This document shows positions 11,930-57,654 of a DNA stretch of 64,000 nt, piece after piece; position 1 is the stretch's first letter; every line of letters begins with the position of its first letter. The position numbers and the translations under genes are program-made. The DNA lies in the NCBI GenBank assembly GCA_947307295.1, contig CAMZIQ010000001.1, positions 104,968 to 168,967 on the forward strand, written 5' to 3'. Under the pieces are notes generated by a model. It was not told the DNA's origin. It was given only the letters and a program-made list of their open reading frames with translations, and searched no databases. The stretch comes from an uncultured Pseudomonadota bacterium. Lineage in GTDB: Bacteria > Pseudomonadota > Alphaproteobacteria > Rs-D84.

Positions 11930-11931
11930 AA

Positions 11932-13659
11932 TTATAATGACGCTTTGTCAAAAGTATTGTTTATAACATATTCATCTTCGCTGTTATAATACGGCCATTT
12001 ACCATCCGCCAATTCTTGCAAGGCAGTCAAAGGCTGATTAAGTCTTGCACGATACAGCCACAAATTAGACATCACACGTTTAATATAATATCTTGTTTCA
12101 TATGCAGGGAAACTTTCTATGTAAAGTAATGGATCTTTGGTAGAAAAACTTTTTTCAAACTTTGCCAAATTTCCAATACCAGCATTATACGCAATCAACA
12201 TTTTGATAATATTATTTTTCACCAAATCTTGTTGCAATAAATCTACAATAAATTGCTGACCCAAAAACATATTATGTTCAGGATTTGCCATATCAATATC
12301 AGACATTTTCACAGAATTTTTACGCGCGACCAATTTCGCAGTCTTTGGCATTAATTGCATAACCCCATTTGCACCGACATTTGATTTCGCAGTTGATTTA
12401 AAATTACTTTCCTGTTTTGTAATTGCCAAAAGCAACGCCCTGTCGATAGACCAACCACCCATAGGTTCCCAATTAGGAAGCGGATATTGCGCTGAATAAA
12501 TAATATCATCATTGATTTCTAAAATCCCCCTGTCGCGCATAACACCTGAAACCAAAATGGAAACGCTTGGCAAACCATACATCGAAGACACAGCATTCAC
12601 AGCATGCAACATTTTATCCGAAGACTTTGCCGTCACCAAATATTTTAAATATTGTTCAGCCCTGTCTTTGCGGCCGACCTGAATCAAAGCCAACGCTTTT
12701 TTTCCATATTTATTTTCACGCAAAGTCACGATATCTTCATCAGAACATTCTTGGTCAAAAAATTCATATTCAGGTTTATTGCCCAACATAGTCGATGCCA
12801 ACGCACCATAAAAAGACATAGGATGAGTTGCGGCGATTTTCCAAAACCTTTCAGCTTCGCTGCTGTCCCCATTTATATCAGCTGCACGCCCTGCCCAGAA
12901 AGCAGCTTCGGTCTTTCGGGCATTATTAATTTGAGTTAAATCTAAAATTTGACCGAAATATTTTTGCGCTTCTTTATATTTTTGTTCTTTGAAATAAAGC
13001 AATCCCATAGACCACAAACCATATTCCGATTTAGCATCACTAGCAACAAACCCCCATTTTTTAGCCAATTCATATTCGCCATTTGTGTAATAAAGGAACG
13101 ACAAACGACCCGCCAATCTGCCATAATCAGCTTCGGAAATTTTTGATTTAAAAGATTTATCTTCCAAAATTTTACGTGCAGATTTTGAAGAGCCGGAACG
13201 TATAGCCTTTCTAAACTTTGTTATGTTTTTCGTCACTTTTTCATTATACTGTTTAACGGTCCAAGTTTCAGATTGAGCCGCTTCGATATATTCTTTACCC
13301 GTCACGATGCTCGGCATAGCGGGTTTACGCACAGATGCTTTTTTTAACTTTGCAATTTTAGCCAATCTTTCAGAACCAGGCATATCGTTATACCTAGAAA
13401 GCCAATTTTGCAATTCTGTGCCACGTGTATGATAAGTCTTTGAAATATATCTTTGATATAAAACTTCGTTCATCAAAAATTTATCAGTTAATTTAACTTC
13501 CAATTTTTTGGCTGCATCGATTTTTTCTTTATCCTGCAACATAAATATTTGTGCATAAAGTGCCGCATCTTCATCTGTTAAAATATCAACAGATTCTATT
13601 GCCACCGATACAAGTGGGCATAAAACCAGCATTAAAAATGTAAATATTTTTTTTATCAT
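11932..13659 (-). CDS. slt: Soluble lytic murein transglycosylase (Slt70-like, SLT domain). The track ORF extends to 13779, but the signal peptide MIKKIFTFLMLVLCPLVSVA suggests the start is at 13659
   Basis: C-terminal SLT catalytic block ITKQESNFKSTAKSNVGANGVMQLMP and TPR-like superhelical N-terminal region. Confidence 0.85.
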   Translation of the reverse strand: MIKKIFTFLMLVLCPLVSVAIESVDILTDEDAALYAQIFMLQDKEKIDAAKKLEVKLTDKFLMNEVLYQRYISKTYHTRGTELQNWLSRYNDMPGSERLAKIAKLKKASVRKPAMPSIVTGKEYIEAAQSETWTVKQYNEKVTKNITKFRKAIRSGSSKSARKILEDKSFKSKISEADYGRLAGRLSFLYYTNGEYELAKKWGFVASDAKSEYGLWSMGLLYFKEQKYKEAQKYFGQILDLTQINNARKTEAAFWAGRAADINGDSSEAERFWKIAATHPMSFYGALASTMLGNKPEYEFFDQECSDEDIVTLRENKYGKKALALIQVGRKDRAEQYLKYLVTAKSSDKMLHAVNAVSSMYGLPSVSILVSGVMRDRGILEINDDIIYSAQYPLPNWEPMGGWSIDRALLLAITKQESNFKSTAKSNVGANGVMQLMPKTAKLVARKNSVKMSDIDMANPEHNMFLGQQFIVDLLQQDLVKNNIIKMLIAYNAGIGNLAKFEKSFSTKDPLLYIESFPAYETRYYIKRVMSNLWLYRARLNQPLTALQELADGKWPYYNSEDEYVINNTFDKASL

Positions 13660-54202: not shown

Positions 54203-54502
54203 GTGGGCCCCTTTCACTCCGCTTCGCTCCGTCCAGAACCCAAACATTGTTTCACAATGTACGATTTCAAACCAATACACCACAACAAAATAAAAAATAC
54301 ACCTTTCGGTGTCTTTTTTATTTTGGTCGGAGTGGCGGGGCTGTAATTCCCACTCATTTCATTCGTGGGCCCCTTTCACTCCGCTTCGCTCCGTCCCGAA
54401 CCCAAACATTGTTTCACAATGTACGGTTTCAAACCAATACACCACAACAAAATAAAAAATACACCTTTCGGTGTCTTTTTTATTTTGGTCGGAGTGGCGG
54501 GG
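54203..54502. repeat. Tandem direct repeat, two copies of about 138 bp with a 162-bp period. Each copy ends in the 3'-terminal 17 nt of tRNA-Pro(GGG); copy 2 is fused to the intact tRNA
   Basis: Copy 1 is 54203-54340 and copy 2 is 54365-54502, nearly identical with two mismatches seen. Both contain the palindrome cattgtttcacaatg and the terminator hairpin acacctttcggtgt. Confidence 0.85.
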
Positions 54503-54562: not shown

Positions 54563-54753
54563 AAAAAAGTGGTCGGGGCAACAAGATTCCCTCGGCAATT
54601 CTTGCCTGCGGAGCAACCGTAACGATTTTGGTTCGTTAACACTTCCAAAATCTACTTGTTGTCGAACCTGTCATTGTTTCACAATGATAGATATCAAATC
54701 TGTACACCCACTTAAATCAAATAAAATACAACTTCGCTGTATTTTATTTGATT

Positions 54754-54830
<77 letters not shown>

Positions 54831-56125: not shown

Positions 56126-56248
56126 AAAACAAATCCTTTGTTATAAATTATCAGTTAAATCATACACGAAAATATTCTGTAAATCAACGAGATAAAAAAG
56201 AAAGTCGCCATTTGCATGGCGACACAAAAAACAAAAAATTAAACTAAA

Positions 56249-56503: not shown

Positions 56504-56640
56504 TTTATATCCTTTGTTTTCATTAATACTTTTGGCTCATGCTACTTAGCCGCCTTTCACTATAAAATACCATTTTCTGACTTATCTGTCAAGAAATTAT
56601 AACAAATGATAACAACACATTGATTTTTGGAAAAAATATT

Positions 56641-57639
56641 TTATATGAATAAATCTGCCAACAAATCATTCATATTTTCACGCAAAATATCCTTATCAGG
56701 ATTCCAAATCAAAGCATGCATCAAGAATTTATGCACATCATCCATCGTCACATTCGGAATACCTGCGCCAGTCACAATTCTTTTCCATGCGACACGCGGA
56801 TCAGTTAAATGAAATCTGCCCCGCCCCATAAACACCCATTCTCCATCTTGGGGCATGTCTTGCAGTAACAACACAGCCATATTAGATAGAGGCATATCCA
56901 ACCACAAATCATGATTAAAATCTAAATCTTCCCACCGCATTTTGAATATTTTCGTCTTTGGTGCAAAACCATAAATCAACATTAAAAAAGCAGAACGCAA
57001 ATTAACATCAGGCTCTTTTTTTATCGCATTCAATAATTTATTTAATCCAGATTTATTTAATTTTCTGACGCGTCTTACAACATTAATTCGTTCAATATTA
57101 TCCATCGGATTGTCTTTTCTGTACCCCGTAGATATCGCATAGTTAAACACGCTTTGTAATAATTCCTGCATACGCAAAGCCATTGCACGCCCAGAAATTT
57201 TATCCAATTCAATTTTTAAATCATCAGTCGTTAAATCTTGGATATTTTTTTCAAACAAACATCCAAAATGTAATTTAACAGCACGTTTTAATTTATTCAA
57301 AGAATCTTCACCACGACGTACTTTGGATTCCATATATAAATCAATAAAATCTTTAAACGAAATCTTTTTTCGTCTGATTGGAACTTTTTTGCAAGCTTCG
57401 TTTAACACTTCGCTAACTTTTGCGCGCGCATCTTCAATATCCATCTCGGGATAATTACCGATAATGATTCGTTTATCACGACCATTAACACGTTTACGCA
57501 CAAAAAAACTTTTAACACCACGTTGTGTTATATACATACGTAATCTCGGTTCAGACAAATCTTGGACAACATCAAAACCTTTTTCTGGTGATGGCAGATT
57601 ATCAAGAATATAAGTATTAAAGAAAAATTGATGTGCCAT
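56641..57639 (-). CDS. Tyrosine recombinase/phage-type integrase with P4-like N-terminal arm-binding domain; probably degenerate (box II Arg and C-terminal catalytic Tyr segment not found)
   Basis: N-terminal arm-binding-like region and box I-like FKMRWEDLDF. The expected HxLRH box reads HKFLMH. The ORF ends in NMNDLLADLFI with no RY-type catalytic Tyr motif. Confidence 0.55.
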   Translation of the reverse strand: MAHQFFFNTYILDNLPSPEKGFDVVQDLSEPRLRMYITQRGVKSFFVRKRVNGRDKRIIIGNYPEMDIEDARAKVSEVLNEACKKVPIRRKKISFKDFIDLYMESKVRRGEDSLNKLKRAVKLHFGCLFEKNIQDLTTDDLKIELDKISGRAMALRMQELLQSVFNYAISTGYRKDNPMDNIERINVVRRVRKLNKSGLNKLLNAIKKEPDVNLRSAFLMLIYGFAPKTKIFKMRWEDLDFNHDLWLDMPLSNMAVLLLQDMPQDGEWVFMGRGRFHLTDPRVAWKRIVTGAGIPNVTMDDVHKFLMHALIWNPDKDILRENMNDLLADLFI

Positions 57640-57654
57640 AATTTTTCCCTTTAT

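Follow-up and report, generated by a model that had tools for sequence, protein, structure and literature searches.

The stretch of DNA analysed here, 64,000 nucleotides of contig CAMZIQ010000001.1 from an uncultured alphaproteobacterium of the order Rs-D84 and called the window below, encodes between acpP and lepA an integrase-like protein of 332 aa (positions 56641-57639 with the stop codon, minus strand; an open reading frame (ORF) call backed by comparison with homologues and orthologues). We consider it probable that this gene is a domesticated, catalytically dead derivative of a P4-type integrase, whose product most likely acts as a DNA-binding protein. The preliminary description of the locus had placed the ORF exactly and had recognised an integrase homologue of the P4 arm type, and our analysis agrees on both counts; it had also taken the gene for the remnant of a decayed or rearranged element, a view that the conservation described below contradicts. 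Integrase genes are routinely taken as markers of mobile elements, and copies lacking catalytic residues are routinely dismissed as pseudogenes. Members of the present family go in databases under the names 'integrase', 'tyrosine-type recombinase/integrase' and 'hypothetical protein', and our literature searches found no description of the family.

Domain matches and structure prediction together indicate that the three-domain architecture of integrases, consisting of an arm-type domain, a core-binding (CB) domain and a catalytic-domain (CAT) fold with its C-terminal helix, is kept. The arm-type DNA-binding domain (residues 1-85; 57385-57639, minus strand, like all parts of the gene) matches Arm-DNA-bind_3 (PF13356) of Pfam over residues 32-82 with 32.3 bits against a cut-off of 27, as well as the arm domains in PDB entries 3jtz and 3rmp, and is the most constrained part of the protein. 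The CB domain (SAM-like, Phage_int_M; residues about 94-185; 57085-57360) gives a borderline match to PF22022 (26.7 bits against a cut-off of 27, residues 110-182) and is supported by Foldseek. For the CAT-like fold without an active site (residues 194-332; 56644-57060), the evidence is a weak match to Phage_integrase (PF00589), scoring 13.9 bits against a cut-off of 27.1 and covering profile positions 3-123 of 172 only, together with the predicted structure and Foldseek. In PHROGs the protein matches phrog_1 (integrase) at E 2.5e-27. The XerD equivalog of NCBIfam, TIGR02225, is not matched (16.7 against a cut-off of 329.6) and XerD-type scores are negligible; likewise, no PADLOC family was hit at E <= 1, so that the protein is not recognised as an anti-phage defence component.

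An AlphaFold2 (AF2) model made from 150 family sequences has a mean pLDDT of 87.7 with no segment below 50, and the CAT-like domain is predicted confidently too. Searched against the PDB with Foldseek, the model gave full-length lambda Int (1z1b) as its best match (E 9e-9, TM about 0.5), followed by Tn1549 integrase, XerD (1a0p) and XerA, with a probability of 1.00 for 1z1b, 6emz and 1a0p. Taken alone, the N-terminal domain resembles the arm domains 3jtz and 3rmp of integrases of the high-pathogenicity island (HPI) and P4-like type (TM 0.77 to 3jtz, which phmmer also matched to the protein), and the middle domain resembles the integrase CB domains 2kj9, 2kob and 2khv. The C-terminal helix spans residues 316-331 in the model and is preceded by a short loop with a conserved Trp.

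To read the active site, we compared the family (n = 324) with intact integrases of 380-440 aa from an exhaustive HMMER search, 40 of which entered a profile-profile alignment, using MAFFT alignments and hhalign. The intact relatives carry the motifs TGARR, ETKNG, HDLRRT and GHxS...IYAR. The hhalign match to them is very strong (probability 100%, E 2e-69) and stops at residue 308. Box I, LMLIYGFAPKTKIFKMRWEDLDF, is recognisable, as the preliminary description had noted; yet both kinds of alignment place Pro227 (codon 56959-56961) where the catalytic Arg should be, TGxR having become GFAP. Pro occupies this Arg-I position in 287 of the 324 family members and Arg in only eight. The 10-residue beta-hairpin bearing the catalytic Lys has been deleted at the M249/P250 junction (56890-56895), and this beta2-beta3 hairpin is gapped in 324/324. 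The basal members with Arg-I still in place (P0359, P0361, P0368) suggest that the Arg-to-Pro change followed the deletions. Box II reads D300-D-V-H303-K304 in place of H-D-L-R-R (56728-56742): His-II is Asp300 (Asp in 307/324) and Arg-II is His303. The same earlier reading had rightly found box II altered, but it had taken the hexapeptide HKFLMH (residues 303-308, nt 56716-56733) for the motif, a register that is off by three residues.

The protein ends 24 residues beyond that hexapeptide and, as the preliminary description had reported, without a Tyr motif. According to the alignments and the AF2 model, these last 24 residues (56644-56715) form the loop IWNPDK and the single C-terminal helix, and they stand where intact relatives have about 48 residues carrying His-III and the Tyr nucleophile. 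For the His/Trp-III column, the hhalign alignment ends too early; one MAFFT run places the conserved W312 there and another a deletion. None of the alignments offers a counterpart to the Tyr nucleophile, and the C-terminal 100 residues are without a conserved Tyr. A single Tyr, Y223, is near-invariant, but it falls on a hydrophobic helix position where intact relatives have Tyr or Leu. A downstream frameshift that would restore a Tyr-containing tail, for which a check had been suggested, was not found either: the 137-bp spacer to acpP has stops in all three frames, and the C-termini of intact integrases found no match in it by tblastn. Nor do the alignments reveal the full R-K-H-R-H-Y set at unusual spacing, since Arg-I, Lys, His-II, Arg-II and Tyr are lost. 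As aligned, the active-site positions are substituted or deleted, that of His-III only probably so, and the protein should therefore be unable to cleave and rejoin DNA. The pattern points to substitutions plus two internal deletions, not truncation, as the cause of the catalytic loss. Because the lesions are common to the whole family, they must be ancient, and the loss of the Tyr region in particular reads as a family-wide event and not as a recent frameshift or truncation.

For this protein, a word-indexed search returned 1057 homologues; among the best 120 of them, 119 have 332 aa and one has 333, at identities of 79-100%, with two at 100%. PF00589 is on record for none of 120 and, weakly, for three of 120 in the two sets of relatives listed. 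When each species was represented by one genome, a scan revealed relatives with the same lesions in at least 201 species genomes within Candidatus Enterousia and the order Rs-D84. The 80 orthologous loci fetched for the locus analyses come from rumen and gut metagenome-assembled genomes (MAGs) assigned to Candidatus Enterousia or to unnamed Alphaproteobacteria. Every one of the 80 orthologues is an unbroken ORF of 332-340 aa with the common start MAHQF[FY]FN and a common C-terminal end, and no disrupted copy was seen among these loci. In 80/80 the order rbfA-lepA-[gap]-integrase-like gene-acpP-fabF is kept on one strand, the gap holding 0-4 small ORFs. Six distant members (42-51% identity, 327-347 aa) retain these neighbours to the extent that their contigs cover them, with contig GC from 25% to 51% in the five of them that were measured. 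Across the family the length ranges over 327-353 aa. The most divergent member, P0129 (353 aa, 37% identity; locus L083:2580-5033 on contig CAZEWI010000038.1), is the only one seen to have been relocated, and sits between an acyl-ACP (acyl carrier protein) thioesterase gene and recR-rsmA. This new position again adjoins an ACP-related gene, which accords with the candidate target near acpP proposed below. Outside the family there is a sharp drop in similarity, the next relatives being ordinary intact integrases with about 30% identity.

The sequences bear the marks of selection. The ratio of nonsynonymous to synonymous substitution rates (dN/dS, Nei-Gojobori) over the 80 orthologues lies at 0.05-0.10 among the closest pairs (those with dS below about 0.6), with a median of 0.14. 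By domain it amounts to 0.095 for the arm, 0.22 for the CB and 0.13 for the dead catalytic-like domain. The arm domain is thus the best conserved part and holds most of the invariant residues; those of the CAT-like domain are H277, D280, K304 and R320. For pairwise protein distances, the correlation is r = 0.89 with lepA and 0.79 with fabF, not lower than the 0.71 between lepA and fabF themselves. Judged by these measures, the gene is a vertically inherited core gene under purifying selection, its dead domain included. Host genomes of the order Rs-D84 span 0.75-1.0 Mb with about 850-950 genes (PMC12306168), and long retention of a useless gene in genomes below 1 Mb is therefore very unlikely.

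The gene is also closely tied to its upstream neighbour. In the window, 15 nt carrying the ribosome-binding site AAAGGGA separate the lepA stop from its start codon (57640-57654, minus strand), and at all loci examined the start codon lies 10-25 nt past the stop of the preceding ORF with a ribosome-binding site ahead of it. This geometry marks the gene as operonic with lepA. On the other side, acpP begins 137 nt beyond the end of the ORF.

What, then, might a recombinase without an active site do? DNA binding is plausible because the arm domain is the most conserved part, the isoelectric point of the protein is 9.5, and the arm and CB domains are positively charged (net charge about +5 each). 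We propose that a P4-type integrase gene became fixed in the lepA-acpP-fabF cluster in the ancestor of Rs-D84 and descended vertically thereafter. Its basic arm-type domain would recognise short direct repeats in a sequence-specific manner, and the clamp formed by the CB and CAT-like domains could add affinity, DNA bending or oligomerisation, with an outcome that may be regulatory or architectural.

A candidate target lies directly downstream. Footprinting revealed a tandem direct repeat, GTTGTTAT-CA-TTTGTTAT, with a 10-bp period (56599-56616, minus strand), which could be an operator, a relic arm-type site or a promoter element. It starts 25 nt past the integrase-like stop codon and abuts the -35 of an acpP promoter-like site, TTGACA, 17 nt, (TG)TATTTT (56564-56592, minus strand), which is itself conserved. 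The spacer between the gene and acpP measures 116-155 bp in all loci but one (88 bp). Phylogenetic footprinting of this spacer across 81 species yielded the block TTTGTTAT-NN-TTTGTTATAATTnCTTGACA-N17-(TG)aTAnnTT, in which two 8-mers stand out and the columns are conserved at >= 90%. With <= 1 mismatch allowed, the tandem repeat occurs at a single site in the 64-kb window, the only stretch of this genome searched, and it is found in 79/80 loci as well as in the outgroups L085-L087. The promoter-proximal GTTAT, at a fixed distance to TTGACA, is also present in L081, L088 and L089, lineages of 25% and 51% GC included, and in three outgroups the first repeat unit overlaps the gene's own stop codon.

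With low confidence, we suggest that the GTTAT tandem repeat by the acpP -35 is the target and that binding there modulates transcription of acpP-fabF, and with it fatty-acid synthesis. Tandem direct repeats of 8-10 bp by the 3' end of int have the look of arm-type sites in lambda-type att regions. This raises a more specific idea, which we hold to be rather unlikely, namely that the integrase and its own arm-type repeats were co-exapted as a transcription factor and operator pair for the acpP-fabF promoter, the GTTAT repeat being a fossil of the element's att arm next to the int 3' end.

Several observations weigh against DNA binding by the protein or against the repeat as its target. The CAT-like domain is roughly neutral in charge. 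The repeat is degenerate or single in L081, L088 and L089, lineages that keep the protein, and it is absent next to the relocated P0129 gene. Moreover, the window contains TTTGTTAT more often than expected (22 times against 10.8), and the 8-mer also occurs in other promoter-like intergenic contexts. The textbook extended -10 element is TGnTATAAT, and the second repeat unit, TTTGTTATAAT, is a perfect extended -10 box. A simpler reading of the element, as a second acpP promoter or a UP-like element, may therefore apply.

Second sites of the repeat turned up in five related loci (L036:~12254-12290, L046:~12436-12470, L058:~11930-11965, L059:~2003-2020 and L075:~6500-6535). They belong to a conserved element of about 70 nt in one Enterousia subclade, located between mltG (yceG) and an outer-membrane-protein gene, a context established in L058 only. 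The element, in which a hairpin is followed by TTTGTTATAATTnGTTATA and this in turn by an AT-rich stretch, runs on the strand opposite to the acpP-proximal repeat. It matches no Rfam family and is followed by no ORF. It resembles an extended -10 after a terminator, and may represent the promoter of a small RNA or a second binding site.

On the lepA side, the spacer before the integrase-like gene is very variable. It ranges from 0 to 2282 bp across species, the window with its 15 nt having no cassette. Spacers above about 250 bp hold 1-4 tandem, same-strand small ORFs of 95-370 aa that are Cys-rich, fall into two sequence families of 78 and 20 members and follow one another closely within the operon. 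They occur at loci within L002-L080, for example L080:3719-6000, L053:4256-6000 and L055:2032-4301. The two families have no Pfam match, and no member is present in the 64-kb window. The same junction holds two unknown ORFs in the outgroup L086 and a NUDIX gene in the outgroup L088. These comparisons suggest a hot spot at which genes have been gained or duplicated.

Two of these loci have features of their own. In L080 the last 29 nt of lepA, stop codon included, are repeated 535 bp downstream at 90% identity (3689-3717 and 4224-4252); this att-like duplication brackets the first small ORF and was seen in one of 80 loci. In L070 a spacer ORF of 209 aa (4286-4915) has at its N-terminus a phosphopantetheine-binding (ACP) domain (PF00550, 32.5 bits) sharing 41% identity with the AcpP of the window, so that in this species the integrase-like gene is preceded by an extra ACP-like gene. 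The idea that the junction holds a cassette array, integron-like or bounded by att sites, is not supported, given that no boundary repeats recur and the duplication exists in L080 only.

We weighed four other explanations of the gene. That it is a decaying recombinase pseudogene without present function, left by an element that integrated near tRNA-Pro, is extremely improbable, even though the active site is destroyed and, at a distance of 2 kb, there are two tRNA-Pro genes accompanied by short repeated fragments of 3' ends. A decaying remnant would hardly leave 80/80 orthologues intact with the same start and C-terminal end, dN/dS of 0.05-0.15, and a lepA-acpP position that is fixed down to 42% identity, also in lineages without an adjoining tRNA-Pro; the family-wide and hence ancient lesions in hosts with genomes below 1 Mb speak against it as well. 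An active site-specific recombinase with a non-canonical active site or nucleophile would be consistent with the retained fold and C-terminal helix, with the invariance of H277, D280, K304 and R320, and with the Arg-I kept in eight basal members. We nevertheless regard it as very improbable: the last 100 residues hold no conserved Tyr, Y223 is not at the catalytic position by alignment, and the Lys hairpin is deleted in every one of the 324. Furthermore, the motif around H277 and D280 (GHLxDP) also exists in intact relatives, away from the active site, and the window shows no segment set between att-like repeats, whether inverted or direct.

The two remaining explanations keep a selected function for the protein. 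It might be a non-catalytic accessory subunit or target selector that recruits another recombinase or a transposase, in the manner of TnsF or of an inactive heterotetramer partner. TnsF is a precedent (PMC10293859), and such a role might explain the hot spot of gene gain at the lepA junction (0-2282 bp, 0-4 small ORFs, NUDIX); the att-like lepA-end duplication of L080 would fit it too. However, no transposase or active recombinase is found in any neighbourhood examined, nor any other tyrosine recombinase in the 64-kb window. The duplication is confined to a single locus, the small ORFs, whose tight operon packing fits tandem duplication, are not flanked by boundary repeats that recur, attC-like or other, and the window has no cassette at all; we rate this explanation as unlikely. 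A selected protein with a role other than on DNA, for instance in protein-protein or RNA binding and tied to LepA or the ribosome through lepA-rbfA co-transcription, would fit the basic nature of the protein and the tight coupling to lepA, with spacers of 0-36 nt and overlap in some species. Yet conservation is highest in a domain whose only known role is that of a DNA-binding module, and the relocated P0129 copy is not beside lepA; we rate this possibility, too, as unlikely. A domesticated, non-catalytic DNA-binding protein accounts best for the combined evidence.

Ancestry and predicted fold place the protein within the tyrosine-recombinase superfamily, in its P4-type, arm-binding branch. 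It shares its three domains, with the arm domain above the Pfam cut-off, with the P4-type and genomic-island integrases (Yersinia HPI 3jtz and 3rmp; CP4-like), and is about 30% identical over residues 1-308 to intact environmental relatives of 380-440 aa. In contrast to these integrases, it has lost the catalytic positions, is about 60 residues shorter, and has no tRNA/att site and no element cargo; it is a vertically inherited core gene flanked by lepA and acpP-fabF. Lambda integrase (1z1b, 1z1g, 5j0n) provides the best full-length structural match for arm, CB and CAT, whereas the identity is 15-16%, and the present protein lacks the equivalents of R212/K235/H308/R311/Y342, probably also that of H333, and the helices carrying His-III and Tyr. 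XerC and XerD are likewise chromosomal, vertically inherited members of the superfamily, and XerD (1a0p) is among the structural matches; unlike the present protein, however, they have no arm domain and are catalytically active. Judged on its sequence, the protein fails every testable defining feature of an active tyrosine recombinase and is not to be filed as an integrase or mobile-element marker.

The closest functional analogies are with other inactivated recombinases. TnsF of the Tn6022-like Tn7 transposons, an inactivated tyrosine-recombinase derivative that selects DNA targets, combines zinc fingers at its N-terminus with tandem CB domains; it is transposon-borne and works with TnsABC/TniQ (PMC10293859). 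Both proteins are without a catalytic pocket, and TnsF serves DNA recognition instead of catalysis. The present protein differs in having an arm-type beta-sheet N-terminus from which Cys motifs are absent, no tnsABC/tniQ nearby, and housekeeping neighbours in keeping with a chromosomal core gene. In eukaryotes, Crypton- or DIRS-derived host genes, such as the Crypton-derived genes of animals, and the ALOG domains of plants are tyrosine recombinases of mobile elements exapted as non-catalytic DNA-binding or regulatory proteins (PMC3212892, PMC3537659); the evolutionary pattern is alike, while their origins are unrelated and other domains are retained. Our literature searches found no domesticated non-catalytic tyrosine recombinase described as a chromosomal core gene of bacteria, and only the TnsF, Crypton and ALOG analogies.

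The family would thus show clearly, and for bacteria, how a tyrosine recombinase can be domesticated and become a non-catalytic host protein that is core to a whole order, and this in gut bacteria with genomes among the smallest free-standing ones of the Alphaproteobacteria. Its mis-annotation as 'tyrosine-type recombinase/integrase' in MAGs would cause mobile elements to be called falsely. Should the protein indeed be linked to the acpP promoter, a reduced genome would have gained a regulator of lipid synthesis from a mobile element; if co-exaptation holds as well, a core bacterial regulator would have been born of a mobile-element recombinase.

Two further features lie downstream of acpP. 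A terminator-like hairpin, GTCGCCATGCAAATGGCGAC, followed by a T run, is located between acpP and fabF (56204-56223, minus strand), and an overlapping hit to the Rfam family L20_leader is sub-threshold (26.8 against 58.7 bits) and probably due to chance. Beyond fabF, 2 kb from the integrase-like gene, are the two tRNA-Pro genes, whose att-like fragments the preliminary description had linked to the integrase. We rejected this link: within Enterousia, tRNA-Pro(cgg) keeps its place after fabF as part of a conserved synteny, close relatives have the tRNA-Pro pair there, and no tRNA-Pro stands near the gene in the four distant lineages scanned, which keep the same gene order. A 138-nt direct duplication with 99% identity (54203-54340 and 54365-54502) overlaps tRNA-Pro(ggg) at its 3' end. 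Just upstream of tRNA-Pro(ggg), 20 nt from the 3' end of tRNA-Pro(cgg) recur as a copy (54570-54589 / 54754-54773). From their arrangement, these supposed scars look like a local duplication of the tRNA region that is unconnected to the integrase-like gene.

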